A model generated the notes under the pieces. That model ran no database searches and was not told the DNA's origin. It saw only the letters and a list, made by a program, of their open reading frames with translations. This document shows, piece after piece, positions 533 through 18,137 of a DNA stretch of 64,000 bases. Position numbers and translations under genes: made by a program. The first letter of the stretch is position 1; each line of letters opens with the position of its first letter. Source of the stretch: an uncultured Chloroflexia bacterium (GTDB lineage: Bacteria; Chloroflexota; Chloroflexia; Thermomicrobiales; UBA6265). The DNA is taken from assembly GCA_963750275.1 (NCBI GenBank), contig CAVVQC010000007.1, positions 104,346-168,345 on the forward strand, given 5' to 3'.

Positions 533-2947
533 CTAGATCAACCCCAGCCGGAAGCCAGCGGTCACCGCTGCGGCTCGGCTGTCGACGTCCAGCTTGGAAA
601 AGATGTTCGCCACGTGGGTGGTGGCGGTGCGCGGGCTGATGAAAAGGCGTTCGCCGATCTCGCGGCTGGAGAGCCCGTCTGCCATCAGGCGGAGAACTTC
701 CAGCTCGCGGGGCGAGAGAACGCTCTTCGACACCGGGAAGCGGCTCGCAGCCGGCCTTTGCGCCGGTGTCGCCGCATGTGGCGGCGCGGAAGGCCGGCCC
801 GAGCGCGCGAGTTGCTGCAGCTCCAGCGCCCAGGTCATCAATTGGTCCATCGTCGCCACCTGACCGTCGGCCCAGGCGGCAGCATAGGCAGGATCCTGCA
901 AACGTTCCTGGAGCTTTTCACCGTCGAGCAGGGAAGGGTCAATATATTCCTGCAAACTCAGTCCAATCGATTGGCGAATCTTTTCGGCAGAAGCATGAAA
1001 GCGGGTTGCCGCAAGGTTGTCACCTAAAACGGCGGCCAGTCCCGCCAGCGACAGGCGAGTCTCGGCTTCACCCCACGGATCGCCCTGGCGATGCGATGGC
1101 TCCAGACAATTGACCAAATCGGTCACTGCTTGCGCATAGTCGCCCCGGTTGCGGGCAGCAATGGCAAGATTGATAAGTGCAGTCACCACCCCCCATTCGT
1201 TGCCACGCGCCTGCCAAAGCTCGAGCGCCGAGCGAAATTGCGCTTCACTCTCTTCTTGCTGACCGACTGCGGCCAATTCGATACCGAGCCGGTTGTACGC
1301 GAACGGAACGCGCGATTCGGCTCCGGATTGAATCATCTGCTGCAAGGCCGAACGAGCGGCCGTCACGGCCGCCGCGTGGTCACCCTTACTCCCCAATACA
1401 AAGCTCTCGAGGAACTCGACTTGCCCTTCGCGGCCGGTTTCTTCGGATTCGGCGACGACCTGCCGACATTGCTCCAGATAGGGTAGGGCAGCGACCGGAT
1501 CCCCTTGCATACCCGCCAGGAAACCGCCCCCGAACAGCACCTGCAAACGGTCATCACTTGGTTCATACGGTGCGGCTTCGAGCGAACGGCAAATCCAGCT
1601 GCGCCCCTCGCTGAGATAACCACGCGTCTGCCAGTACCACCAAAGCTTGCTCGCTAACCGCAAGGCCAACTTTGGGTCGTTATCGATTGCCCATTCCATA
1701 GCGACGCGCAGATTATCGTTTTCCTGCCCCAGGCGCTGGACCCAGTGATACCCGTCTGGCCCCCAGATGAGCGGATCGGCTATCTCGGCCAACCGCAACA
1801 GGGCCAGCAAATGCCGGCGGCGATAGAGCTCACCTTCGCCCGCGATTTCGAGCTGCTCGAGCCCGAATTCGCGCAGTGTTTCGAGAATAATGAAGCGCGC
1901 CTCCGATTCTGATGATCGGTCAGCCAGCACCATGCTGCTATCGACCAACGTGGCGATCGCATCGAAGAGCTCGAGTGGATCGCCCCCGCCTCTGGGAGCA
2001 GACGGTTCGCCATCGGCGGAATAGCCTTCGATTGCAGAGGCTTCGTCGAGATTGAATCCTCCCGAAAAAACACTCATATGGCGGAAGACCGCCTGGTGCT
2101 CGGGACAGAGGAGATCGTATGACCAGGCGATCGCATCGCGCATGGTTTGCAGCCGAGCGGGAACATCGCGCGGACCACCAGTGAGTAATTGCAGGCGGTT
2201 CGACAGCCGGGAGAGCAACGCCTGCGGCGAGAGAATCTTCGTGCGCGCGGCTGCCAGCTCGATGGCCAGCGGCAACCCATCGAGACGGCGGCAGACTTCG
2301 ACCACTGCCTTGGCATTCTCGGCGTTCAGTTGGAAGGTATTGCGCACCGCGCGGGCTCGATCGACGAAGAGCGCCACTGCGGAATTCTGTAAGAGCTTGT
2401 CGGGCGTACGATCGCCATCCACCGCGGGCAATGGCAAAGGAGCGAGCAGGTACTCATGCTCGGCAGTGATGCGCAGGGGAACTCGGCTGGTCGCCAAAAC
2501 CACGGGACCCGTCACTCGGGTCAACAGCTCGGTGATGGCCCGCGACGCACCAACCACGTGCTCGAATCCATCCAGCACCAGGAGCATGCGGGTGCCATCG
2601 AGCCGTTCCTGCAACCGATCGAATACGGGTGAATCCCGTTCTTCGCGCAGTTCGAGCGACTTGGCGAGTAGATTGAGCACTAACTCAGGATCGCGCACCG
2701 AAGAAAGGGAGACGAAAACAACCCCATCCGGAAAGAGATTGCGTGAGTCCACATATAACTGCGCCGCCAGGCGAGATTTGCCCACGCCGCTCGGGCCGGT
2801 GATCGTGACCAGGCGCACCGAGGGGTCGCCAAGCATGGCCGACAACGAAGCTAAATCGTCCTGGCGTCCAAAGAACGAGGAGCGCAGGTAGACCGGTTCA
2901 CCCCAGTCCACCTCGGCTTCCCATCCCACCGACTCATGAGATGACAT
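533..2947 (-). CDS. STAND-type ATPase/TPR/LuxR-HTH transcriptional regulator
   Basis: FFGR motif, Walker A GPSGVGKS, LLVLDGFEHV, GLPLAIEL, TPR-like region, C-terminal LSPRELEVL...HVANIFSKL LuxR HTH. Confidence 0.92.
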   Translation of the reverse strand: MSSHESVGWEAEVDWGEPVYLRSSFFGRQDDLASLSAMLGDPSVRLVTITGPSGVGKSRLAAQLYVDSRNLFPDGVVFVSLSSVRDPELVLNLLAKSLELREERDSPVFDRLQERLDGTRMLLVLDGFEHVVGASRAITELLTRVTGPVVLATSRVPLRITAEHEYLLAPLPLPAVDGDRTPDKLLQNSAVALFVDRARAVRNTFQLNAENAKAVVEVCRRLDGLPLAIELAAARTKILSPQALLSRLSNRLQLLTGGPRDVPARLQTMRDAIAWSYDLLCPEHQAVFRHMSVFSGGFNLDEASAIEGYSADGEPSAPRGGGDPLELFDAIATLVDSSMVLADRSSESEARFIILETLREFGLEQLEIAGEGELYRRRHLLALLRLAEIADPLIWGPDGYHWVQRLGQENDNLRVAMEWAIDNDPKLALRLASKLWWYWQTRGYLSEGRSWICRSLEAAPYEPSDDRLQVLFGGGFLAGMQGDPVAALPYLEQCRQVVAESEETGREGQVEFLESFVLGSKGDHAAAVTAARSALQQMIQSGAESRVPFAYNRLGIELAAVGQQEESEAQFRSALELWQARGNEWGVVTALINLAIAARNRGDYAQAVTDLVNCLEPSHRQGDPWGEAETRLSLAGLAAVLGDNLAATRFHASAEKIRQSIGLSLQEYIDPSLLDGEKLQERLQDPAYAAAWADGQVATMDQLMTWALELQQLARSGRPSAPPHAATPAQRPAASRFPVSKSVLSPRELEVLRLMADGLSSREIGERLFISPRTATTHVANIFSKLDVDSRAAAVTAGFRLGLI

Positions 2948-2959
2948 AACTGGATTGTA
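2948..2959 (-). promoter_or_regulatory. -10 box TACAAT 6 nt before ATG (probable leaderless promoter)
   Basis: Minus strand TACAAT-ccagtt-ATG, no Shine-Dalgarno. Confidence 0.5.
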
Positions 2960-3121
2960 CTTTCAAGGTTTGGACCAGTCCAGCGGGAAGTATCTCATGG
3001 GTGAGACACGGGCGGGGAGGACATCGAACGCGGCATTCAGCGCACATCCACTTCTCAGAATCGTCTCTGTGCGCTCCGGACTCTGGGTCTTGGCCAAATA
3101 CCGCGGCCTCTTATCTCGTCA

Positions 3122-4871
3122 CTACATGACCCGGCGATCGGTCAACGTTTCGAACTCGTGGCCGCGCCAGACCGGGATGCCGCAGAACCGCTCGCCCTCA
3201 GGGCAGGTGGGCATCGATCCGGCGCGGGAGCGCATCACGCATGGGGGACCATCGACATAACGCGCCACAATTGGGAAATGTTCGCGCATCTGGGCCACTT
3301 CTTCCACGGCGGTGGAGAAGATCTCTCGCTGCGCATCGAAGCAAAGCCGTTTGACCCACTTCCAGTAGTAATTCAACAGGGTCCCGGTTTCGTAGAAGCG
3401 GACGCGGTGGCTATTCGGGAGGAGATAGAGACTCCATTGCGGATCGACCCCCGCATCGAGCAACGCGTTCTTGGCGTTCCAAAGGGCGGTGACGGTTTCG
3501 TCGTATTCCCGTTTGGCCTCCGGGTTGCGTTCGATGGCCCATGGGGTCATCACATCCGGGTTACGTCGCTGGTGAGCCAGCAGCAACGGACTGGACGAGA
3601 GGGTTCCTCGATGGCGCTGGTTCTGCGCATCCTCTGCGCCACTGATGCGCTTCTGGAACGTGAAGGGAATATGGTTCATCGTCTGCATCAGCTTCGAGCT
3701 CATGCCCAGGAAGAGGGGATGCCCCAGGTAGGGGTTCAGTCGCGGGTCGAGCACCTGCGCGATCGCGTCCTCGTCGCTCAGTCTCGGTTGACGCCCGGGC
3801 CAGCACCGTGCGGATAGCGCTCGCCATAGTCGCCTCGGCATTCGGATCGAACCCTGCTAACCGGCTGTGCTGACGGCTGCCGAGCGCCGCATCGTATTCG
3901 AGGAAGAACGCTTCATTGGGAACCTCGGCCAGCGATTCGTGCCAGGAGTCGAATGCCTTGGCCTCGATCGAATCGCCTAAGGCAAGCTGGCGAAGATCGA
4001 GCGGCGCATCGGGCGCCCCGAGGAAGAACGGATCGACTGCTAGTACCTCATCGATCATCCGATCAACGATGTAGCGCACCTCGGCCGGAGCGTCAGGCTG
4101 GTTGGCGAGCACGTGATAGCGCAGCAGCGTCAAACCGTTGACCGTGTGATAGAGATGACTCGGGGTGGCAAGCGGCAGCACATAGCGCGCCACTTCCTGC
4201 GCACGTTTCTGCACGGCGCCATCGAACCGCGCGACCGCCGCAGGAGTCGTTCCCTTGGAACGTGCCGGGAAGACGCCAGCATAGTCATGCGCGAAATCGG
4301 GGGTCAGGATTTCGACTAATCGCCGATATCCCTGCAACGCCCGCTCGATCGCCTCGGCATAAATCTGCTGTTCGCGCGCCGGAAGATCGGGGATCAGCAC
4401 AGTTTCGCCGGTGACTTCGCGATAACGCTGCGACACCTGCTCAGAGTTATAAAACGGATGCGAGTGGAAAAAAGACCAGATCGCCAGGCGCGAGACATTG
4501 TCCAGCACGAAGGTGAAACTGGCGTGTTGCAACGTGGTGTGGTGCCCGGCGGCGAAGAGATCGCTATAGAGTCGTAATGCCCGCGATTGCCGGCCTTCTC
4601 GATCGGCGGCTTTCTCATCCGAGAGGCCCTCGGGTGCCGGTCCGATCAATTTCCGAACGTTATCTACCTTGGCCGGTTTTCCACCATAGCACGACCAGGC
4701 TGCGGCAATCGCCACTGAGAACGGATGCGCGGTTGATTCATCACGTAACAGGGTCACCTTCGGGGCCGCGCCGACGAACGGCGAAACCGGATTCAGAAGG
4801 TTTGCCGATGGAATCTCGACCTCAGCACGAATAGGAACGGGTTCCTGCGGTAGGCGATCTTGTAGGCTCAT
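3122..4871 (-). CDS. thyX: Tandem-domain FAD-dependent thymidylate synthase (ThyX-like), split by a single frameshift near 3782
   Basis: GHHTTLQHASFTF, SEQVSQRY, EVARYVLP in ORF 3561-4871; QNQRHR, YLLPN, KRLCFDAQREI in ORF 3122-3841; frames join at ...ASTE/LSDEDAI. Confidence 0.8.
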
Positions 4872-8914: not shown

Positions 8915-9718
8915 TCAGACGGTGAACGTGCTCAAGGAGGGGTTAGTGAGGAATACGACCCGCTCGGGATGCTCGGTACCGAGGAGATAAAGCGGCGTGT
9001 CATCTTCGAACGGCTCCAGATCGGCCGCGGTAACGACCTCGATCCCTTCGTCTACCTCGGGATAGGCGTGATTCCATTCTGCTTCGAACGCGTCTTCTTC
9101 GCCAGGCACTGCCATGATGCGTACGGCGCCTCCCTGACGGGTGGCATAGCCCTGGTAGTGATTATTTGACGCGGTTGCTACCAGATCGGCCACCACCAAC
9201 GGAGTCGTCCCGATATTGACGGTGACGTGTCCGTAGTTGGGCGGAATCACCAACCGGTCACCGGGTCCAGCCACGATCACAATACCCCGGGTCACTCCCG
9301 GGTCGGTTGCGGGATCGCCCTCGGCTCGTTGCAGCACGAACGCCGCGTCCCCTGAAAGCACATCGTAGATCTCTGCCCAGCTGACGCCGTTCCTATCCAG
9401 CGCGTGGTAGTGCCCGGCGGTTTTGATGAACTCGCCCCCAACCGCCCCAGGGAGGGTGACGGTAACGTCGTAGCGCAAGCCATTCGCGGCCAAGCCGGTT
9501 TCTTCCGCCAGGCGCACATCGCGATACGTGAAGTAAGCGGTCTCGTCCGCGATCGCATCGGCTGCTTCCGGAACCGCCACGACGGAGCGAAGATCGCTAA
9601 AGCGCCGTTGGCCAGGACCTTCCCAGAAAACGGTGCTGGCCAGGTCGATAAGCTGCCCGGTCTCCTGGTCGATGGCGATGGGGAGTCCGCTGATGTTGGA
9701 AAGGTCGAGCGTTTTCAT
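8915..9718 (-). CDS. Cupin-type (archaeal-like) glucose-6-phosphate isomerase
   Basis: LRYDVT, GEFIKTAGHYH, EIYDVLSG, IPPNYGHVTVN cupin PGI metal motifs. Confidence 0.85.
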   Translation of the reverse strand: MKTLDLSNISGLPIAIDQETGQLIDLASTVFWEGPGQRRFSDLRSVVAVPEAADAIADETAYFTYRDVRLAEETGLAANGLRYDVTVTLPGAVGGEFIKTAGHYHALDRNGVSWAEIYDVLSGDAAFVLQRAEGDPATDPGVTRGIVIVAGPGDRLVIPPNYGHVTVNIGTTPLVVADLVATASNNHYQGYATRQGGAVRIMAVPGEEDAFEAEWNHAYPEVDEGIEVVTAADLEPFEDDTPLYLLGTEHPERVVFLTNPSLSTFTV

Positions 9719-10278
9719 TCGAGATTGGTATGCCGTTTCGCGAGCGTTGCAAAACCGGTCGCGGCATCGCCAGCGGCCAGCAACGAGACCATGGTTTCGA
9801 AAAGGAGAAGCGTGGTTTGCTCGAAGAGACTACCACCGTACTGGCGCGAGCTCGAACCCTGCAATTTGTGCTGGGTCGGTAGGAAGACGACCAGGTCGGC
9901 CAGCCCGGCCAGCCGACTTTCGGCATTGGCGGTCACCGCAGCCAGCCGAGCGCCCGCTGCCCTGGCGCCGTCCGCCATCATGACGACCGTGCCCGTCTCT
10001 CCGGATCCAGAGATCGCTATTAGCAGATCGCCATCCGCAATCGCGGGTGTGGTGGTTTCCCCAACGACGAAAGCTCCATGCCCAAGATGCATCAACCGCA
10101 TGGCAAACATGCGTCCAACCAGCCCCGAGCGTCCTTCACCGAGCAAAAAAATGCGATTGGCTCTGGAAATCGCTCCCAGAAGCTCACCGATCGCGACATC
10201 ATCGACCAGCGCAATCGCTTCGACCTGCTCAGCCAGAATCTCGGCCGCCTCATCGTGAAAGGAGAGGGGTTCAATCAT
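9715..10278 (-). CDS. hxlB: 6-phospho-3-hexuloisomerase (SIS domain)
   Basis: GEGRSG, FAMRLMHLG, VVGETTTP, ISGSGET, GSLFEQ, C-terminal HTNLE. Confidence 0.93.
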   Translation of the reverse strand: MIEPLSFHDEAAEILAEQVEAIALVDDVAIGELLGAISRANRIFLLGEGRSGLVGRMFAMRLMHLGHGAFVVGETTTPAIADGDLLIAISGSGETGTVVMMADGARAAGARLAAVTANAESRLAGLADLVVFLPTQHKLQGSSSRQYGGSLFEQTTLLLFETMVSLLAAGDAATGFATLAKRHTNLE

Positions 10279-10909
10279 CGATCACGCCCCGAACCATGGA
10301 TGCCGCAGCCACCGGATCGTCCGCTCCCGTGATGGCCGAACCAACCACTACGATCGCCGGGCGATAGCCCAGCACACCCAGCAGTGAGTTCGCATTCAGA
10401 CCGCCCGCGATCACCAGCTTCATTTGCGAGTTTGCCGTCACGAGCCCAATCTCGCTCATCAGATCTGTCCCCCCGGCCAGTCGAGCGTCGGTTCCCGCGT
10501 GAACGCCAAGATAGTCGACACCCAACCGCTCGAGCTGCGCAATCCGTTGCGGCACATCGTGCACTCCCAGCAGATCGGCGGCAACTTCGAGTCCCCCGGC
10601 GTGGGCCACCTCGACCACGCCAGCGACCGTCGCATCTGCGGCGGACGCCAGCACAGTGACGAATGCCGCACCCGCCTCAACTGCCAGTTGCGCTTCGAAG
10701 GGTCCGCCGTCGGCGATCTTCATGTCGGCCACCACCGGCAATCCGGACGCTTTTCGCAGTTCGGGAATCACTCCGATGCCATAGCGCTTGATGAACGGGG
10801 TACCCGCCTCGATCAGATCGACGACCCCGCGCAGCGATGCGGCCAAGGCGATCGCCTCATCGAGCGTTAGCGTGTCAATGGCTACCTGCAATCGGGGTCG
10901 TTCTGGCAT
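10271..10909 (-). CDS. hxlA: 3-hexulose-6-phosphate synthase
   Basis: LQVAID, IEAGTP, ADMKIADG, HAGTD, AGGL; overlaps the hxlB start. Confidence 0.88.
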   Translation of the reverse strand: MPERPRLQVAIDTLTLDEAIALAASLRGVVDLIEAGTPFIKRYGIGVIPELRKASGLPVVADMKIADGGPFEAQLAVEAGAAFVTVLASAADATVAGVVEVAHAGGLEVAADLLGVHDVPQRIAQLERLGVDYLGVHAGTDARLAGGTDLMSEIGLVTANSQMKLVIAGGLNANSLLGVLGYRPAIVVVGSAITGADDPVAAASMVRGVIDD

Positions 10910-10992
10910 GGTTCGAGTTTGTCCTTGCTGGGGCACGACGCCCGAGTTACAACTCGCGGCATCGCAGATGAAACCTCTTCGCAGTTGGCGAG

Positions 10993-12048
10993 CTAGACCG
11001 GCAAAAGTCCTTCGACCTTGAAGAGCTCAGCATTCAAGATACTCGCACCGGCCGCACCGCGAATCGTGTTATGCCCCAGCAGCACGTACTTCACCCCCAG
11101 GATCGGGCACTCGCGCAACCGACCGACCACGGAGGCCATACCTCGTTCGCAATCACGGTCCAGGTTCGGTTGCGGGCGGTTGCGCTCTTCGCGCACCACG
11201 ATCGGACGCTTCGGCGCACTGGGAAGATCGAGGAGCTGCGGCCGCCCCTTGAAGGTCCGGAACACGTCGGCCACGTCCCCTGGTGTCGCGCTCTGACCAA
11301 GCTTCACCGAAACCGATTCGGTGTGACCGTCGCGGACCGGCACCCGCGTGCAGGTGGCGCTGACCACCACCGGGTCGAACTGGAAGCCATCCTGCCACTT
11401 GCCGAGCAGCTTCTGCGTTTCTTCGGCCATTTTTTCTTCTTCAGTCGGAATAAAGGGGACCACATTGTCGATCATGTCGAGCGATGGCACACCCGGATAC
11501 CCCGCTCCGGAAACCGCCTGCAAGGTGGTGACCATCACCTGCTCCAGACCGAAGGCATCCTGCAGTGGTTTGAGTGTAAGCACCATGTGGATTGCCGAGC
11601 AGTTTGGATTGGTGACGATGAATCCCGACCAACCGCGGTTCTTCTTCTGGGTTTCGATAGCGCGGGCATGATCCGGATTCACCTCCGGGATCATGAGGGG
11701 GATATCGTCGCCCATCCGGTGAAAGGAGGTGTTGGACAGCACCGCATGGCCGTCCTTCGCCAGACGCTGCTCGATTTCCTCAGCGACTTCACCAGGAAGC
11801 GCAGAAAAGGCAATCGGGCTATCGATCTGATCGACGTAATCCTTGACGACCATATCGGCCACGCTTGCCGGCACAGTCGAATCGAGTCGCCAATCGGCAG
11901 CCTCACGATAGGGACGCCCAACCGAGCGTTCGGAAGCGACCAGCTCGGCCACCTCGAACCACGGATGGTGCTCGAGGAGCTGGACAAATCGTTGTCCCAC
12001 GCTCCCCGTGGCTCCGAGGACAGCTACTGGAATTTTCTTCGACGACAT
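10993..12048 (-). CDS. asd: Aspartate-semialdehyde dehydrogenase (archaeal/fungal-type clade)
   Basis: VLGATGSVGQRF, HPWF, NPNCS, QAVSGAGYPG, HNTIRGAAG. Confidence 0.95.
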   Translation of the reverse strand: MSSKKIPVAVLGATGSVGQRFVQLLEHHPWFEVAELVASERSVGRPYREAADWRLDSTVPASVADMVVKDYVDQIDSPIAFSALPGEVAEEIEQRLAKDGHAVLSNTSFHRMGDDIPLMIPEVNPDHARAIETQKKNRGWSGFIVTNPNCSAIHMVLTLKPLQDAFGLEQVMVTTLQAVSGAGYPGVPSLDMIDNVVPFIPTEEEKMAEETQKLLGKWQDGFQFDPVVVSATCTRVPVRDGHTESVSVKLGQSATPGDVADVFRTFKGRPQLLDLPSAPKRPIVVREERNRPQPNLDRDCERGMASVVGRLRECPILGVKYVLLGHNTIRGAAGASILNAELFKVEGLLPV

Positions 12049-12114
12049 CGATCATCCTTTCATACAAACAACGCATACAAACAATGAAGGCGGTGATCTT
12101 CCCCACCGCCTCGA

Positions 12115-13565
12115 CTATCCGACCTGAACCGATTCCGCCATCATTCGCGAGCGACGCTGGCGACGAAGCTTGGCGCCACTTGGGCGCGAGCCGATGAACT
12201 CGTCATGGATCGCCATCAGCCCGCGATCGGCCAGGGACTGCGGCACCGCAGCCACCATGGCGACATTGGAGAGTTGTTGATTGGATGCCAGCACCGGAAT
12301 CCCCTCGCGCTGCAACACGCCGAGCATGCGCGCTAATGCGCGCGATTGATCCGCTGCGCCCTGCCCAACCGCTGCCAGCACGGCGACCTCTTCCGTGCAG
12401 CCGATCTCGACCTCGTACTCCCGTTCGCGCAACACCTCTTCGATCCGGGAGCACAGCCGGTTGCAGCCACCATAGTTGCCGGCCTCGATGAGATAGGTCA
12501 TCCGGCGGCGGCTGGACGCCTGCGCGGCCAGCACGACTTCGGTGCGGTCTTCATAGAGCGCTCCAAACACCGCCGACGCGGCGCCGGAAAGGTCTTCCAA
12601 CTCGGGCACATCGACGGTCAGCAGGATGAGGTTCTTCATGACCGTTACGGCTTTGAGATAGTCGCTGCTCGATTCCCGGGTCACCAGCGTGCCTGGTTCG
12701 TACGGGCAAACGTGGAAAGAATGCGTACCGGGATGCCGAGCGCGACCGCGGGACGGATCGTACGCGGATGGAGAACTTTCGCGCCGAAGTGCGCCAGCTC
12801 CTGCGCTTCTTCGAAGCCAAGCTGTGGCACCTCGCGGGCGTCCGGCACCATTCGGGGATCGGCCGAGAGCACACCAGGTACATCGGTCCAGATCTGAACC
12901 TCGTCCGCATGCAACGCCGCGCCCAGCAGGGTGGCGCTGTAATCGGAGCCGCCCCGTCCGAGCGTGGTCGTGGTGCCGTCCGGCGCGCCACCAATGAAAC
13001 CGGTCATGACAACCGTTTTCCCCTCCTCGAGCAATGGCCACACGATCGCGTCAGCTTGCTCGCGGGTGCGATCGTGTTCGGGACGCGCCGCCCCGTAACG
13101 CGCGTCGGTGGCAAGTACCCGGTCGGCGAAGACCGCTTCGGCGGGATAACCCCGCGACCGCAGCGTAGCTGCCATCAGCAGGCTCATCACCTTCTCACCG
13201 GTCGACACGATCCGATCGGAATTTTTTGCCGAGAATTCCCCCGCAACTGCCACATCCGCCAAAGTCAGCTCCAGCGCCGTGTGCAAATCGCCAATGCGGA
13301 CTGCGGTTTCCTTGCGGTCGGCGCCATCCGGAAGCCCTTCCAAAATCGCGAGGTGTTTCTCGGCGATCACCTGGACCGTAGCGGACATGCCGCCCCGGTC
13401 GCCGCTGGCGGCTTGCCGTCCAGCTTCCAGGAGCAGATTGGTCACACCAGAAGCGGCTGATACGACGACCGCGCGGGGAGCGGGTTGGGCGGCGGCAATG
13501 GCGGCCGCTTCCCGAACCCGTTCGAGTGAGCCGACGGAGGTGCCTCCGAACTTGAGTACGATCAT
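12115..13565 (-). CDS. lysC: Aspartate kinase with ACT domains, frameshifted at a C-run near 12705
   Basis: MIVLKFGGTS, TTLGRGGSDYSA, DPR, GAKVLHP; adding one C restores FAPYEPGTLV and joins the ACT-bearing ORF. Confidence 0.9.
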
Positions 13566-13582
13566 GCGCGTCGATCCTGCGT

Positions 13583-13621
13583 AAAACAAAAAAGAGGCGG
13601 GAGCGTTGTTCGCTCCCGCCT
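13583..13621 (-). terminator. Intrinsic terminator of the lysC attenuator
   Basis: AGGCGGGAGCG-AACAA-CGCTCCCGCCT followed by CTTTTTTGTTTT, about 18 nt before the lysC ATG. Confidence 0.9.
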
Positions 13622-13649
13622 GCCGGTGATGCCTGGTTACGTCGCTCGC

Positions 13650-13760
13650 TCAGACGTCTCCCCATCTACCGGCAGGCGTGCGCTTGGTAATCATCATGGT
13701 CATCATGAGGATCCCCAGGGGCGCGCCGGTAGTAGTGGTCGTGATCGAGCGATTCGTCAT
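13650..13760 (-). CDS. Attenuator leader peptide MTNRSITTTTTGAPLGILMMTMMITKRTPAGRWGDV
   Basis: 36 aa with 9 Thr, 4 internal Met, 3 Ile, 1 Lys; contains an 11-nt strand complementary to the 5' flank and arm of the terminator. Confidence 0.88.
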   Translation of the reverse strand: MTNRSITTTTTGAPLGILMMTMMITKRTPAGRWGDV

Positions 13761-13766
13761 AGGGTC

Positions 13767-13795
13767 ACTATACCGGGCGATTCGGCCTGGTGCAA
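13767..13795 (-). promoter_or_regulatory. Sigma70-type promoter TTGCAC-N17-TATAGT, leaderless to the leader peptide
   Basis: -35 at 13795-13790, -10 at 13772-13767, 6 nt to ATG 13760. Confidence 0.75.
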
Positions 13796-14148
13796 CGGCA
13801 GTATGAAAACGCGGCTTTCGTGGCAATTGATTGGAATTCAGTTTGATTCGCCGAAAGAGTGTGCTTCGATGAGAATTTCCGCTCGACTTGGCCATCGCTC
13901 TCAAGATCGCTCTACGTGGGGCGGCATACCTCGCAACCTACCCGGTGCCGGGTACCATTCCAGCAAATGACTGACCTTTGGATCTCACTCGATCGCACCG
14001 TCGCCGGCGCGCCGCATACTCGGAGACTGCTCACGCATCGACTGGGATCGACCGTCGTGTGGCGGCCTCGGCTACTCGACGAGCCCGAAGATCTCAGGTT
14101 TGGATTTGACCTCCCGCTGTCTCGGTGACCCGGCGAGCACGTGTTTGC

Positions 14149-14967
14149 ATGGATAACCAGCTTGTGACTATCGACAGCATCAAAACCACGTATGTCGAAG
14201 CCTATGGCCGAGTCGTTGCCCTCGAATGCGATGACACGCTGTTCGACCTGCCCTATCTTCCGTTCAACTGGCTTGCTACGCCCCCATCCGGCACGATCGA
14301 TCGCCGCTATTCAGTGGCGCGCACCGGCGAGAGCGCCTGGGAGATTGCCATCGACGACCAACCCTCGACCACGCTCTCCGACGCGAGCTTGATTGCCGAA
14401 TATATTGAAGGCGATCTGCATCATTGGCTCGCCACCTATACGACAGACTTCCTCTTTGTTCATGCCGGCTGCGTGAGCTGGCGCGATCGCGCCATCGTCA
14501 TTCCAGGCCGCTCCTACGCGGGAAAAACAACGCTCACTCAGGCACTCCTGGAAGCAGGGGCTGTCTACTATTCTGATGATTATGCGGTGATCGACGCTGA
14601 CGGCACGATTCATGCCTTCCCCCGGCAGCTACGCGTCCGTTCCGAATCGATCGGACCGAGCCGCCTGGTCGACCCAGTCAGCAGCAATTGGCCAGTGGGA
14701 CGCGATCCCATTCGGGCTGGAGTCGTTGCGGCGCTGACGTATGACGCCGAGCTGGGGTGGGACGTTGCAACGCTGAGTCGTGGGATGGGAGCGCTTTCGC
14801 TGCTGGATAACACCGTTGCCGCGCGCGAACGCCCGGAAGACGCATTGCGCCTCATGAGCAGGGCAGTGTTTGGCGCGATCTCCATCAAAGGGACCCGCGA
14901 CTCTGCTACCAACACCGCTCAACGGCTGATTGCCATGGTTGATGATCTGCTCAAAAGCGCGGGTTAA
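14149..14967 (+). CDS. HPr-kinase-like P-loop kinase
   Basis: FVHAGCV, IPGRSYAGKTT, YYSDDYAV, FPR. Confidence 0.75.
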   Translation: MDNQLVTIDSIKTTYVEAYGRVVALECDDTLFDLPYLPFNWLATPPSGTIDRRYSVARTGESAWEIAIDDQPSTTLSDASLIAEYIEGDLHHWLATYTTDFLFVHAGCVSWRDRAIVIPGRSYAGKTTLTQALLEAGAVYYSDDYAVIDADGTIHAFPRQLRVRSESIGPSRLVDPVSSNWPVGRDPIRAGVVAALTYDAELGWDVATLSRGMGALSLLDNTVAARERPEDALRLMSRAVFGAISIKGTRDSATNTAQRLIAMVDDLLKSAG

Positions 14968-15038
14968 TTCCAAACACGGCAAGCGCCACTGGTTCACACC
15001 TGCAAAAGCATTTCCCCGTGGAGATGTCGAATCCGGGA

Positions 15039-16694
15039 TTACGCTTTGCTCGCGCTTCCGGGGACGAGTTGTCGAACTTTCTCCCCAAATTTCTGGCCCG
15101 AGCCGTTCTGTGACGGCGGATCGGAGCCGCCCGGAGAATCGTTACTCCCATAGTAATAGTAGTAACTATCAGCCCGGCTGCGCTTCTGGTAGTTGAGGGC
15201 AACGCCAATCACCCGCGCCGTCTCCGGCAGCGCTGCGACAGCAGATTGCAGTCGGTCGATCCGGGTCTCATTGGCGCGTGAAACCAACAGTACATCCTTG
15301 GCCACATCGGCCACCACCAAAGCATCTGTCACCGCCAGCGCGGGCGGAGTGTCGAGGATCACCATGTCGAATTCATCATTCAGGGTTTCCAGCAACGCCT
15401 TGAACCGTGGACTCTTCAGGAGATCGCCGGGATTCGGAGGAATCGGACCAGAGGTGATAACCCGCAGCTTGAGATCGGCATTGGTTCGAGCCACCGAATT
15501 CCAGTCGACATCCGATCGCGCCAGCAATGTCGACAACCCGCGCTCGTTCGTAAGGTTGAACGCTTCCTGCTGTGCCGGACGCCGCATGTCGGCATCGATA
15601 ACCACTACGCTGAATCCTGCCTGGGCCATCGCAACCGCGAGATTGGCAACCACGGTGCTCTTGCCTTCGCCTGGACCGGCACTCGTCACCGCCAGCGTCT
15701 TGACATCAGTACTGGCGATGGCGAATTCCACATTGGCGCGCAGTAAGCGCACCGATTCGGCTTCGGGGGACATTGGTTGGTCGAGGATGAAGAGCTGGTG
15801 TGGCAATCTTTCCATGGATGGAACGATCGGGATGGTGGTCATCAACGGCGCGCCAATCAGCTCGTTGAACGGCGTGTCCACCTTGGTCGTGTTATCAAGA
15901 TATTCGAGCAGGAAGACCGCACCGATGCCGATACAGAGTCCGGCCAGCAGCGCCAACAGGGTATACAACCGCACATTGGGCGCATACGGCGCTCCCGGAA
16001 CCGTCGCCTCCTGAACTACGACTACTCCGGTTTGTGCACCGGCTTGCTGGAGGTCCATCTGATTCGCGGCAAGGAGCAGGTTCTGATACTGGCTTCGCAG
16101 ATCAGTCAGGTTCAATCGCAATGTATCGATCTGGGCGGCAACATCCGGGGAGAGAATATCCTCGCTGGCGACGAGATTGTCGATCAATCGCTGGTTCGTA
16201 GAGATCTTCGCATCAGTAGAAGAAATCTGTTGATTGAGCGCCTCGCGATAGGGACCCGACAGTTCCTCGGTACGGGCCTGCGCAAAGCTTTGAAATTGGG
16301 CGGCGATGGCATTCGCCAGCACGGCCGCGGTCTCTGGATTGGGATCGGACACTGAAATGCGCATGAGCCGCGTATTTGCAAGAGGAGCGGTAGTGATCTT
16401 GGCGCGCAGTTGGTCCTCGGTCAGAGGAAGCTTGAGATCATCGATGACAGGCTGGAGGACCGCCGAGGTCGTAATAAGCGCTTGATACGTGGCAACCACA
16501 CTGTTGTCATAATACGAAAACTGGTCGGCCCCCATGGTGGGCGGATTGATCTCGACCGTCGACGACGCGCTATAGAGCTCTTGCTGCCGTGAAACTTGGG
16601 CGAATGCAACCGTACCGGCCACCAATGGGGCCAGCACGAGCAACCACCACCAGCGACGCGCCATTGCTGCCAGATTTTGAAGCGTAAGGTCCAA
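15039..16694 (-). CDS. Polysaccharide co-polymerase / tyrosine autokinase (Wzc, CpsC-CpsD fusion)
   Basis: Wzz-type N-terminus RRWWWL, AESVRLLRAN, GEGKST, IDADMRRP, DTPP, C-terminal YYYYY cluster. Confidence 0.92.
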   Translation of the reverse strand: MDLTLQNLAAMARRWWWLLVLAPLVAGTVAFAQVSRQQELYSASSTVEINPPTMGADQFSYYDNSVVATYQALITTSAVLQPVIDDLKLPLTEDQLRAKITTAPLANTRLMRISVSDPNPETAAVLANAIAAQFQSFAQARTEELSGPYREALNQQISSTDAKISTNQRLIDNLVASEDILSPDVAAQIDTLRLNLTDLRSQYQNLLLAANQMDLQQAGAQTGVVVVQEATVPGAPYAPNVRLYTLLALLAGLCIGIGAVFLLEYLDNTTKVDTPFNELIGAPLMTTIPIVPSMERLPHQLFILDQPMSPEAESVRLLRANVEFAIASTDVKTLAVTSAGPGEGKSTVVANLAVAMAQAGFSVVVIDADMRRPAQQEAFNLTNERGLSTLLARSDVDWNSVARTNADLKLRVITSGPIPPNPGDLLKSPRFKALLETLNDEFDMVILDTPPALAVTDALVVADVAKDVLLVSRANETRIDRLQSAVAALPETARVIGVALNYQKRSRADSYYYYYGSNDSPGGSDPPSQNGSGQKFGEKVRQLVPGSASKA

Positions 16695-16967
16695 GTATTA
16701 GCCTTCCGGCCAATTTGGAGGCCGGTCGATAATGCCAAAAAAGGCGATTGCAGTTGGCTGTGTGTGGCGCCATCGTAATGCACAGTACGAACGAATTTCA
16801 ATCATAGCGTGGCAATGGAGAAAAGAGTGATTCGAAATGCGGGCAATTCGCTACATCGCGCAGCCAATTCCACCGAAAGTCCTGTCGAATTCGGATGCGA
16901 TGATCAATTTGCGGAGTGCGATACTTGCCCAGATGAATGATTGGGCTCCGTCACCAGTGTCACACCA

Positions 16968-18137
16968 ATGCAAACCGCGATAGTTTCCCCGGTCATGCCG
17001 CGACTTGCCGGGGCGGAAACGTTGCGGGTCGGACTGGTGCACGACTATCTGACCCAGTTCGGCGGAGCCGAACGGGTGCTAGTGGCGCTGCACGAGCTGT
17101 TTCCGGCTGCGCCGATCTTTTGCTCGATCGCTGATCCGTCATCGCTCCCCGATGTCACCCAGGATTGGGATGTGCGCGAAAGCGCCATTGCCAGGCTCCC
17201 CGGTGCGGCTTCCTATCATCGGGCAATGATTCCGGTGTACCCCGCGATCTTCCGCCGCTTCGAAGCCGACCTGCGCGATCTCGACATCGTCATCGTCGAT
17301 TCCAGCGCTTGGGCGCATCATGTTCCGGTAGCGCCCACCACCGGTTTACTCTGCTATTGCCATAGTCCCGCGCGATTTCTCTATGGCGACCGCGACTATC
17401 TGGAACCGGCCGCGCTGCCGCCCGGCGTGCGTCATGTCATGCACGCGATCTTTGGCGGCTTGCGCCGCTCAGATCGCCGTGCCGCCGAACGAGTCGATCG
17501 CTTTATCGCCAATTCGCGTAATGTCGCAGCACGTATCGAGCGCACCTATCGCCGGCATGCCACAGTCATCTATCCCCCAGTCGATCTTCCGGCGTTCGAT
17601 CCCACGATTCCCAAGGAAGAGTGGTTCCTCGTCGTCTCCCGTCTGGTGCCACACAAACGGGTCGATCTGGCGGTTCGCGCCTGTTCGCGCTACGGCATTC
17701 CCTTGAAGGTGGTTGGCACGGGCCGTTCGGAAAACGAGCTGCGCGCAGTGGCGGGACCGACCGTCGAGCTGCTGGGCCGCCTCGAAGATGATGCAGTGCA
17801 GGAGTTGATGGCTCGTTGCAAAGGTTTCATCCTGGCGGGATCCGAGGATTTCGGCATCTCCGCGGTGGAAGCGCAAGCCGCTGGGCGGCCGGTGATAGCC
17901 TTCGGAGCCGGCGGCGCGCTCGAATCGATCATCCCCGGCGAAACGGGAGTGTTCTTCTATGAACGCACCGCGGAATCACTGATGGACGCGATCCGCCGTT
18001 TCGACAAGATCGACTGGGATCCCGCGAAAGCCCGCGCAAATGCCGAGCGATTCTCCAAAGACCGGTTTCAGCGCGAAATCATGGAAGAAGTGCGCGCCGT
18101 ATTACTGCAAAAACAAGCCATCAAGGAAAGCGCCTGA
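16968..18137 (+). CDS. GT4 glycosyltransferase
   Basis: HDYLTQFGGAERV, YCHSPAR, SRLVPHKR, EDFGISAVEAQAAGRPV. Confidence 0.92.
   Translation: MQTAIVSPVMPRLAGAETLRVGLVHDYLTQFGGAERVLVALHELFPAAPIFCSIADPSSLPDVTQDWDVRESAIARLPGAASYHRAMIPVYPAIFRRFEADLRDLDIVIVDSSAWAHHVPVAPTTGLLCYCHSPARFLYGDRDYLEPAALPPGVRHVMHAIFGGLRRSDRRAAERVDRFIANSRNVAARIERTYRRHATVIYPPVDLPAFDPTIPKEEWFLVVSRLVPHKRVDLAVRACSRYGIPLKVVGTGRSENELRAVAGPTVELLGRLEDDAVQELMARCKGFILAGSEDFGISAVEAQAAGRPVIAFGAGGALESIIPGETGVFFYERTAESLMDAIRRFDKIDWDPAKARANAERFSKDRFQREIMEEVRAVLLQKQAIKESA

Follow-up and report, generated by a model that had tools for sequence, protein, structure and literature searches.

The window analyzed here is the whole 64,000-nucleotide (nt) stretch of DNA from an uncultured Chloroflexia bacterium, and its minus strand carries the aspartate kinase gene lysC preceded by a short leader. 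The leader consists of a promoter, a 36-codon open reading frame (ORF) rich in threonine (Thr), methionine (Met) and isoleucine (Ile) codons, RNA segments able to form alternative helices and an intrinsic terminator. All leader, lysC and asd (aspartate-semialdehyde dehydrogenase) coordinates are window positions on the minus strand, and the parts of the leader and its gene are the following.

13795-13790, minus strand: -35 hexamer TTGCAC, read from the sequence.
13772-13767, minus strand: -10 hexamer TATAGT, read from the sequence.
13760-13650, minus strand: leader ORF of 36 codons plus TGA (stop codon at 13652-13650), with the translation MTNRSITTTTTGAPLGILMMTMMITKRTPAGRWGDV.
13745-13728, minus strand: first sensing block, codons 6-11, I-T-T-T-T-T, from sequence and translation.
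13735-13721, minus strand: region 1, the putative 5′ strand of an anti-antiterminator, ACUACUACCGGCGCG, which includes ACCGGC at 13730-13725.
13712-13683, minus strand: second sensing block, codons 17-26, I-L-M-M-T-M-M-I-T-K, from sequence and translation.
13678-13668, minus strand: region 2, the 5′ strand of the putative antiterminator, CGCCTGCCGGT = CGCCUGCCGGU, inside codons 28-31.
13627-13617, minus strand: region 3, the 3′ strand of the putative antiterminator, ACCGGCAGGCG.
13621-13595, minus strand, continuing through 13585: intrinsic terminator from a terminator scan, with an 11-base-pair (bp) stem (9 G-C), a 5-nt loop and the tail CTTTTTTGTT.
13565-12115, minus strand: lysC, aspartate kinase, with Pfam AA_kinase and ACT domains and a TIGR00657 score of 289.6 bits, above the cut-off.

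The two promoter hexamers are 17 nt apart, and 6 nt (GACCCT) separate TATAGT from the ATG at 13760. The ORF encodes nine Thr, four Met (start codon excluded), three Ile and one lysine (Lys). An earlier note on this DNA had named TTGCAC-N17-TATAGT, the 36-residue ORF and both sensing blocks, and we found all of them at the minus-strand coordinates listed above. It had also claimed that codons 28-31 pair perfectly over 11 bp with 13627-13617 and thereby overlap a GC hairpin and U tract just before lysC, which holds: checked pair by pair, region 2 is the exact reverse complement of region 3 over 11 bp, and the last 5 nt of region 3 are the base of the terminator 5′ arm, so the antiterminator and the terminator are mutually exclusive there. 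The terminator ends about 20 nt upstream of the lysC ATG (13565); the scan called 2 terminator-like sites in 1.5 kb, this one among them, against 1.1 expected. For the 191-nt leader RNA we computed a fold of -80.2 kcal/mol (z = -5.4), a stability that none of 200 shuffles attained. The minimum-energy fold contains the terminator, along with a long hairpin between the Thr-run/ACCGGC segment and the GCCGGUAGAUGG segment.

The earlier note had judged this DNA to be probably from Chloroflexota, and the window's genome indeed belongs there, in the order Thermomicrobiales; its family within the order is coded f1. We compared 94 f1 lysC loci spanning at least 24 genus codes: 44 loci (L001-L018 and L020-L045), 30 from an order-wide protein search (L101-L130) and 20 taken by coordinates (L151-L170). 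Another 10 f1 genomes with a lysC match lie outside this set. Thirteen of the loci fell below the first composition threshold and were added by eye and with a relaxed script (including L030, L034-L036, L038, L125, L130, L153, L158, L161 and L167). The close lysC relatives in public records are all metagenome-assembled genomes, labeled Thermomicrobiales, Chloroflexia, Chloroflexota/Chloroflexi or Sphaerobacteraceae (L021-L045), and the next-best matches beyond them, at no more than 49% identity, come from other phyla.

We found the same layout of promoter, start codon, short ORF, regions 2 and 3 and terminator in 92 of the 94 loci, corresponding to 61 distinct sequences, with an equivalent ORF of 33-55 codons in each of the 92. 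Of the two exceptions, L107 is cut by a contig end and retains region 3 and the terminator alone, and L159 (G119:C18:1226-2125) has all parts and a frame that runs past the usual stop and through the terminator. Compared with its closest relatives, L159 lacks one base just past a run of G, a difference that may reflect either a sequencing error or genuine variation. In all 61 leaders, region 2 is followed by the stop codon at a distance of 3-9 codons. The 61 sequences form alignment A1 (61 rows, 151 columns, beginning 48 nt before the end of the ORF and running through the T tract), and A1 plus the terminator structure forms the covariance model R1. Unpublished genomes supply two rows of A1 and R1, L012 (G015) and L017 (G011), whose peptides recur in the public L041 and L031, as well as L106, L127 and L107 among the locus counts and L220, L237 and L228 among the aro leaders described below; dropping all of them changes no conclusion.

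The model R1 found one full-length copy in the window's genome (G000) at 87 bits, and the other seven matches there at E <= 1 reach at most 23 bits and are mostly partial and terminator-only. Across a class-wide sample of 151 genomes, full-length matches of 59-97 bits occur in 17 of 19 f1 genomes, G000 included, and nothing outside f1 in that sample exceeds 32 bits. Three matches were set aside, one in G054 (25.5 bits) at a site that looks like coding sequence and those in G084 and G181 as not attenuator-like. Judged by these conservation results, the leader is more than a chance arrangement.

We found the promoter to be locked to the start codon. TTGnnn precedes the -10 box by 17 nt in 57 of the 61 leaders, by 18 nt in three and by 19 nt in one; the -10 box is TATAGT in 41 and another TAnnnT form in the remainder; and the start codon (ATG in 54, GTG in seven) follows at a distance of 6 nt in 34 leaders, of 7 nt in 26 and of 9 nt in one. 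The sequence flanking the promoter motifs is not conserved, and none of the 61 has a Shine-Dalgarno-like GGAG, GAGG or AGGA in the interval from the -10 box to the start. With the promoter locked to the start codon there is therefore no room for a 5′ leader, and we infer that the transcript is leaderless, with its 5′ end at the A of the ATG (13760). Of the promoter claimed by the earlier note, the position and the geometry, which is conserved, stand; its -35 hexamer fares less well, and a consensus promoter scan of the window did not call the promoter because TTGCAC matches TTGACA at only three of six positions. We take the promoter as real because TTGnnn is kept 17 nt from the -10 box in 57 of the 61.

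A real attenuator might nonetheless begin further upstream, with ribosomes initiating internally and independently of a Shine-Dalgarno sequence. The poor -35 hexamer and the failed promoter call would fit such a transcript, as would the fact that the 5′ end is a prediction and that the sister families of the order use Shine-Dalgarno-led leaders (see below). We consider this decidedly unlikely, since the TTG-N17-TAnnnT-N6/7-ATG geometry is kept in 60 of 61 diverged sequences with unconserved flanks, 0 of 61 has a Shine-Dalgarno-like motif, and in the Shine-Dalgarno-led sister families the promoter sits correspondingly further upstream. The geometry also recurs in the aro and metG leaders of f1 (see below).

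We found that both of the competing helices covary. The antiterminator (regions 2 and 3, or 2:3) is paired in 86.6% of alignment cells, versus 25-47% with the partner slid by 1-3 columns, and its mean duplex energy is -26.6 kcal/mol. Double changes occur at 5 of its 11 pairs (15 cells); 2 of 500 shuffles reach that cell count and 1 of 500 reaches the covariation score. Without structure input, RNAalifold returned a 7-bp antiterminator core as the consensus. The terminator is paired in 85.9% of cells, and both sides are changed in 30 cells, which 0 of 500 shuffles reach. Hence, the runs of Thr, Met and Ile codons and the covarying stems that the earlier note suggested seeking in relatives are present, and the antiterminator emerges independently of any structure supplied.

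The helix between regions 1 and 2 (1:2) is the weakest element of the leader, with modest support. The earlier note had proposed that a third segment, ACCGGC, pairs with the antiterminator strand. In the window it does so, region 1 being paired with 13680-13660 in the minimum-energy fold; across the 61 leaders its support is modest. The mean 1:2 duplex energy of -17.9 kcal/mol does not beat that of shuffles (mean z = -0.7), and the best 1:2 site contains ACCGG in 37 of the 61. In 27 of the 61, the ORF upstream of region 2 contains an exact complement of at least 6 nt to the 3′ half of that region, versus 16.2 ± 3.2 (maximum 28) in 300 codon shuffles, and 38 of the 52 occurrences of such complements sit at codons 8-11. 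A complement to the 5′ core of region 2 is present upstream in the ORF in 3 of 61, versus 2.3 in shuffles. It is the 3′ half of region 2, not its 5′ core, with which region 1 pairs.

Inside the 2:3 loop, a small hairpin (GACGUC..GACGU) surrounds the leader stop codon of the window (13662-13640, minus strand), and other genera have GCGAC-loop-GUCGC at the same place in A1. This hairpin may be an antiterminator stabilizer or a pause site.

We found no known RNA family at the leader. A search of window positions 9000-18000 against Rfam at E <= 1 returned an unrelated internal ribosome entry site model alone (E = 0.79, on the other strand), and 19 related loci gave no match at E <= 0.1; neither the window region nor the 19 loci matched Thr_leader RF00506, the other Rfam amino-acid leaders, the lysine riboswitch, the SAM riboswitches or the T-box. 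Because no Rfam family matches, we do not regard the leader region as a known riboswitch or T-box. The peptides share little beyond a Thr-Gly pair (48 of 61) and Pro-Ala/Val-Gly, both of which encode pairing strands, and outside the pairing strands it is the codon composition that is conserved and not the sequence. Alternative helices alone are no proof of control by a ribosome, and an RNA-binding protein or small ligand acting in trans could in principle set the switch with the ORF incidental. This is very improbable, as it is at odds with the Rfam result at both thresholds, with conservation of composition in place of sequence, with the locking of the start codon to the promoter and with a stop codon 3-9 codons after region 2 in 61 of 61 leaders.

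In many genera (L008, L010, L011, L016, L037, L043 and others), a spacer of 150-290 nt separates the leader terminator from lysC, and a hairpin of the GGAGCAACGGCGCTCC type, which has no Rfam match, recurs in it. This hairpin could be a second control element.

RNA-library data were compared with the leader region. Twenty-four runs matched, each at no more than 0.24 of the sampled words, and we used four RNA-library runs from two studies; the pieces are assembled contigs of relatives (90-99% alike) in which starts, ends, strand and level are unreadable and DNA is possibly present. Six such pieces cover 13473-13740, with none beyond 13740 and none over 13756-14000, and we place no weight on the uncovered stretch. 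One contig of 162 nt corresponds to 13580-13740, and three contigs span the terminator and continue into lysC. A short ORF that is conserved and has a promoter and a terminator of its own could also encode a small functional protein, with the hairpin as its terminator and lysC on another promoter, and the 162-nt contig can be read as the separate short transcript that this would produce. We regard this as extremely improbable, given that the peptide is conserved in its composition and its pairing-encoding segments and not otherwise, that the antiterminator covaries, that the window has no promoter-like site between the terminator and lysC, and that three RNA-library contigs run across the terminator into the gene.

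To quantify the codon content, we took as the sensor part of each peptide the residues before region 2 (1,704 residues in all) and as background the same genome's long ORFs (589,404 residues). We found Thr at 25.7% in the sensor part versus 6.1% in the background (4.2x), Met at 9.7% versus 2.1% (4.7x), Ile at 14.1% versus 5.4% (2.6x) and Lys at 4.3% versus 2.2% (2.0x); all other residues are at or below 1.3x. At least three Thr codons are present in 61 of 61 peptides (mean 7.2 Thr), at least three Ile codons in 57, at least two Met codons in 48 and at least one Lys codon in 47. The residues are also ordered, with a Thr peak 15-22 codons upstream of region 2, an Ile and Met peak 2-13 codons upstream, and Lys peaks 2 codons before region 2 (19 cases) and about 15 codons before it (10 cases). 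Hence, the enrichment in 61 relatives agrees with the earlier note's view that the peptide senses aspartate-family products, with Thr, Met and Ile enriched and Lys more weakly so.

On the anatomy, conservation, codon enrichment and covariation read from these sequences, we propose that the leader is a ribosome-mediated (leader-peptide) transcription attenuator of lysC, carried on a leaderless transcript and sensing Thr, Ile and Met, and we put the probability of this reading at roughly 0.8. The presumed transcription start, ORF translation, stalling and direction of response would combine as follows. A 70S ribosome would load on the 5′ end of the transcript without a Shine-Dalgarno sequence. 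With charged tRNAs plentiful, it would run through region 2 to the stop codon, leaving region 2 masked or captured by region 1; the terminator (3:4) would then form, and RNA polymerase would halt about 20 nt before lysC. A terminating ribosome would stay close to region 2 because the stop codon is 3-9 codons past it. When Thr-tRNA is scarce, the ribosome would stall on the Thr run, covering region 1 and freeing region 2; when Ile- or Met-tRNA is scarce, it would stall in the second block, in the loop between regions 1 and 2, with region 2 again free. Free region 2 would pair with region 3, the lower 5 bp of the terminator stem beside the U tract would be lost, and polymerase would read through into lysC. 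A shortage of any one of these three end products would thus raise the level at which the aspartate pathway's first common enzyme is expressed, which would make the logic that of an OR gate.

We modeled this switch by masking 27 nt around each A-site codon in turn and folding the window leader, with pairing across the ribosome either allowed or barred; the resulting probabilities are equilibrium figures, and real behavior depends on kinetics.

Free RNA without a ribosome: antiterminator 0.00, terminator base 0.99.
Ribosome at codons 9-16: antiterminator 0.79-0.90, terminator base 0.36-0.54.
Ribosome at codons 18-24, pairing across it barred: antiterminator 0.90-0.93, terminator base 0.29-0.36.
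Ribosome at codons 18-24, pairing across it allowed: antiterminator 0.00, terminator base 0.99.
Ribosome at codon 25, pairing across it barred: antiterminator 0.67 (partial occupancy), terminator base 0.78.
Ribosome at codon 26 (Lys), pairing across it barred: antiterminator 0.56 (partial occupancy), terminator base 0.97.
Ribosome at codons 28-36, pairing across it barred: antiterminator 0.00, terminator base 0.98-0.99.

From codon 27 onward with pairing across barred, the terminator base is at least 0.86, and it is likewise at least 0.86 for a ribosome at the stop codon whether pairing across is allowed or barred. In this model, Thr sensing via region 1 is well supported by the anatomy. Sensing of Met and Ile via the loop block is supported by codon enrichment and would depend on a steric assumption, namely that region 1 does not close on region 2 around the stalled ribosome. 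Sensing of Lys in the window's genus is doubtful because the single Lys codon is too close to region 2. The earlier note had voiced the same doubt, and the terminator base at 0.97 for a stall at codon 26 agrees with it. In other genera, Lys codons in the first block could act there.

The steric assumption separates the proposed Thr, Ile and Met sensor from a real attenuator that senses Thr alone, perhaps with Ile, through the first block, region 1 capturing region 2 around any ribosome stalled in the loop. With pairing across the ribosome allowed, stalls at codons 18-26 do keep the terminator at 0.99; Thr is also the most abundant residue, with at least three codons in all 61 peptides, and the asd leaders of one sister family, f4 (see below), are Thr-dominated. 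However, sensing of this narrower kind would leave unexplained the 4.7x enrichment of Met and the 2.6x enrichment of Ile, concentrated 2-13 codons before region 2. It would also have to close a 1:2 helix that is itself weak around a 27-nt footprint with probably about 15 nt of free linker, and a Met-rich leaderless metG leader in the same family uses runs of Met codons in a like element. We therefore consider Thr-only sensing unlikely, and since a ribosome in the loop would leave only some 15 nt of linker unoccupied between regions 1 and 2, we think the barred case realistic.

Several observations weigh against the attenuator as we propose it. The promoter scan did not call the promoter, and the 1:2 helix has the modest statistics given above (z = -0.7; 27 of 61). 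The shuffle statistics of the antiterminator are inflated by related sequences, and its central pairs, indeed most of its pairs, are mostly invariant. The +2 frame is also open in 36 of the 61 leaders, so that an open frame alone is weak evidence. In the masked folds, a stall on the Thr codons leaves the terminator base at 0.36-0.54 at equilibrium, and kinetics would therefore have to favor the antiterminator; stalls at codons 18-24 antiterminate solely when region 1 is barred from pairing across the ribosome. The regulated gene raises a further point, since the lysC reading frame slips by 1 nt at a run of C near 12705-12708 (12700-12712), after the ..STFA codons, and is thereby split over two frames; if the frameshift is real, the regulated gene is broken in the window's genome. 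A same-genus genome encodes an intact protein of 483 residues to which both halves of lysC show 89-90% identity, which makes an assembly error the likelier cause. Lastly, the extent of control may be affected by the second of two features that follow lysC.

12048-10993, minus strand: asd, NCBIfam asd, 476 bits.
12112-12087, minus strand: terminator-like hairpin of 10 pairs with the tail CATTGTTTGT, within the 66 nt that separate the stop of lysC from the start of asd.

The asd gene is possibly co-transcribed with lysC, and an asd N-terminus lies downstream of lysC in 65 of 75 f1 loci examined, the other 10 having short downstream flanks. Co-regulation of asd is uncertain because of the terminator-like hairpin between the two genes, which might act as a partial terminator and so release asd from control by the leader.

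We found related leaders both in the other four families of the order (f2-f5) and at other genes of f1. Among 20 lysC upstream regions read from f2-f5, all three f2 loci have a TTGACA-type promoter, a Shine-Dalgarno sequence, a GTG-started ORF rich in Thr, Ile and Met (for example, VFFSAMMTTGITTMRPPALVDGCYGMRP) and their own antiterminator and terminator; a script picked out two of these leaders, and the third was recognized on visual reading. All four f5 loci have a Shine-Dalgarno-led Thr/Ile/Met ORF, such as MMSMTIMITTTTTTPGWPGGESA, followed by a terminator. Upstream of lysC, a leader was found in 0 of 6 f3 loci and 0 of 7 f4 loci. Weak R1 matches led to asd leaders in both of these families: a Shine-Dalgarno-led Thr/Ile/Met ORF precedes asd in four f3 loci and one f4 locus, with a region 2 containing ..AG.., a region 3 of the GCCGGCAG type and a terminator. 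Five further f4 genomes (5 of 5, for an f4 total of 6 loci) have the same layout before asd with Thr-dominated ORFs. The sister-family leader loci are L131-L133 and L147-L150, together with L196, L197, L200-L202 and L209-L213. Hence, an attenuator of the common trunk of the aspartate pathway appears to be order-wide, placed on lysC-asd, on lysC alone or on asd alone, with the leaderless form confined to f1 among the families of the order.

Within f1, one genome has a second R1 match of 49 bits, upstream of methionine-tRNA ligase (the metG leader L198, G062:C16:131200-133700). It has the same promoter-to-ATG geometry, seven Met within 10 residues, and a region 3 and terminator that resemble those of the lysC element. 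A scan of the window's genome for a leaderless short ORF with residue runs and a terminator gave 21 candidates, two of them attenuator-like, the lysC leader and the leader of DAHP synthase (the aro leader).

G000 C7:1094350-1094600, outside the window: aro leader, with TTGACA-N17, TAGTGT, 7 nt and ATG, and the peptide MDTQQTHHREVIRATGISPISGAWYYFYFTPRLCWRGDGC.

The gene downstream of the aro leader, checked in G000 alone, is DAHP synthase (438 bits). In a DNA search, 22 of 41 f1 genomes matched the aro leader region, and they yielded 23 distinct peptides (L215-L240). These leaders have TTGACA-N17-TAnnnT, 6-9 nt, an ATG and an ORF of 38-55 codons; the peptides carry a cluster of tryptophan (Trp), tyrosine (Tyr) and phenylalanine (Phe) and a PPA(L/S)L(A/V)G-type segment, and the terminator is strongly conserved.

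Beyond the proposed attenuator itself, we also consider, at rather less than even odds, a broader interpretation that joins three elements: a two-zone OR gate for the whole aspartate family in one leaderless peptide, leaderless multivalent attenuation as the lineage's general mode, and a switch of initiation mode between sister families. In it, stalls at Thr codons, and in many genera also at Lys codons, would cover region 1, and stalls at Met and Ile codons would act purely by sterically blocking closure of the 1:2 helix around the ribosome. A pioneer 70S ribosome, loading at the emerging 5′ end, would be coupled to polymerase without the pause hairpin of Shine-Dalgarno-led attenuators. If this is true, leaderless multivalent attenuation would, with the DAHP synthase leader, be the lineage's general control of the first common enzymes in branched amino-acid pathways, and the Shine-Dalgarno-led sister forms would record an evolutionary switch of initiation mode on one homologous element.

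The window's genome has one other aspartate-kinase-like gene, which is split and lies at a contig end (C6:~2000-3170); no leader of the lysC type was found upstream of it. The first 10 kb of contig C6 have 48% G+C, versus 60% for the whole contig, and the flanks of the split gene are Bacteroidota-like. This second gene is probably foreign because of its place in the low-GC contig end, and C6:1-10000 could represent either a chimera at the contig end or inserted foreign DNA. Among Bacteroidota loci with aspartate-kinase homologues (L058, L071, L075, L080, L092, L095 and L099), we observed upstream short ORFs ending in Thr runs, such as ..TTSTTTTTPFGV, which are presumably Thr leaders of thrA-type operons.

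On either side of the leader-lysC-asd region, the neighbors are as follows. Directly after asd, with short gaps, come hxlA and hxlB (10936-9715, minus strand), the two genes of the ribulose-monophosphate pathway; hxlA (3-hexulose-6-phosphate synthase) scores 192 bits, just under the 200-bit cut-off, and hxlB (6-phospho-3-hexuloisomerase) 195.6 bits. Upstream of the leader promoter lies a divergent ORF of 280 residues (14125-14967, plus strand), which has no Pfam match at E <= 0.001.

Thr, Ile, Met and Lys are all made by a route that begins with aspartate kinase, and where an organism has several isoenzymes of it, each is regulated by one product. In this lineage there appears to be a single native kinase gene, with the caveat of the foreign-looking second copy, and regulation seems to rely on one multivalent RNA sensor. 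The leaders reported here would extend classical attenuation, its leaderless form included, to Chloroflexota, and they make up three well-populated candidate RNA families (the lysC/asd, aro and metG leaders) that are absent from Rfam 15. The leaderless and Shine-Dalgarno-led sister versions offer a natural series on how initiation mode and ribosome-polymerase coupling bear on attenuation. For annotation, the short ORFs of the leaders should be treated as regulatory and not be called hypothetical proteins.

A close parallel in design is thrL of Escherichia coli, a leader peptide with Thr and Ile codons and an alternative terminator and antiterminator, upstream of an operon whose first gene, thrA, encodes an aspartate kinase. 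The lysC leader resembles it in its Thr and Ile leader codons, its alternative helices and the aspartate kinase as first gene. The differences are that thrL is Shine-Dalgarno-led, has no Met or Lys codons and serves a bifunctional kinase-dehydrogenase dedicated to the Thr branch, whereas the lysC leader precedes a monofunctional lysC, is enriched 4.7x in Met, has a start that abuts its promoter and does not match RF00506 at E <= 1. The thr and ilv leaders of E. coli are the textbook multivalent attenuators, and that of ilvGMEDA senses Ile, leucine and valine. Like the lysC leader, the ilvGMEDA leader integrates several end products of a branched pathway in one peptide; unlike it, it serves other amino acids and another pathway and is Shine-Dalgarno-led, and no homology appeared by any test run. 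The lysine riboswitch (L-box) of Firmicutes and Gammaproteobacteria likewise controls lysC by premature termination at the RNA level, but it binds lysine directly and has no ORF, and no L-box match was found in the window or in the 19 related loci.

A survey by Lopatovskaya and co-authors reportedly describes classical attenuation in several phyla and may contain prior predictions. In the literature searched, we found no description of a leader peptide for lysC or asd in Chloroflexi or Thermomicrobiales. The main text of Naville and Gautheret 2010 (PMC2965389) mentions no Chloroflexi, lysC, asd or aspartate, and its supplementary tables could hold a prediction. As far as its available text goes, Sun et al. 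2013 (PMC3766115) surveys Rfam families only, and the Actinobacteria survey of Seliverstov et al. gives, in the portion consulted, no RNA element before thr, lys or met operons (PMC1262725).

The nearest parallels for the leaderless form come from Actinobacteria, as described in the available parts of two reports. Streptomyces lividans has eight leader-peptide attenuators, most of them leaderless (two leuL, two trpL, alaL, ilvL, metL and thrL), which sit before leuA, leuS, trpE, trpS, alaS, ilvBHC, metNIQ and thrS (PMC8079986), and trpL and aroR of Corynebacterium glutamicum are leaderless leader-peptide attenuators as well (PMC11802643). These share with the lysC leader, itself predicted to be leaderless, a leader peptide followed by hairpins and a U tract, and RNA-seq evidence backs the actinobacterial cases (PMC8079986, PMC11802643). 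The aroR leader, with Phe-Tyr-Phe before aroF (DAHP synthase), is the closest described analogue of the f1 aro leader (PMC11802643). In contrast, the actinobacterial leaders belong to another phylum, none of those described in these parts controls lysC or asd, and their peptides mostly have 12-29 residues and one codon cluster, versus 33-55 and two blocks in the f1 lysC leaders. The polycysteine leaderless short ORFs of mycobacteria, which in the available text are cysteine-responsive cis regulators of downstream genes (bioRxiv 10.1101/834739), are alike in being leaderless, short and amino-acid-responsive and differ in sensing cysteine. Hence, the mechanism that we propose is classical attenuation, of which leaderless and multivalent examples are already known; what is new lies in the lineage, in the gene under control, in Met and in part Lys being included, and in the occurrence of leaderless and Shine-Dalgarno-led forms across sister families.

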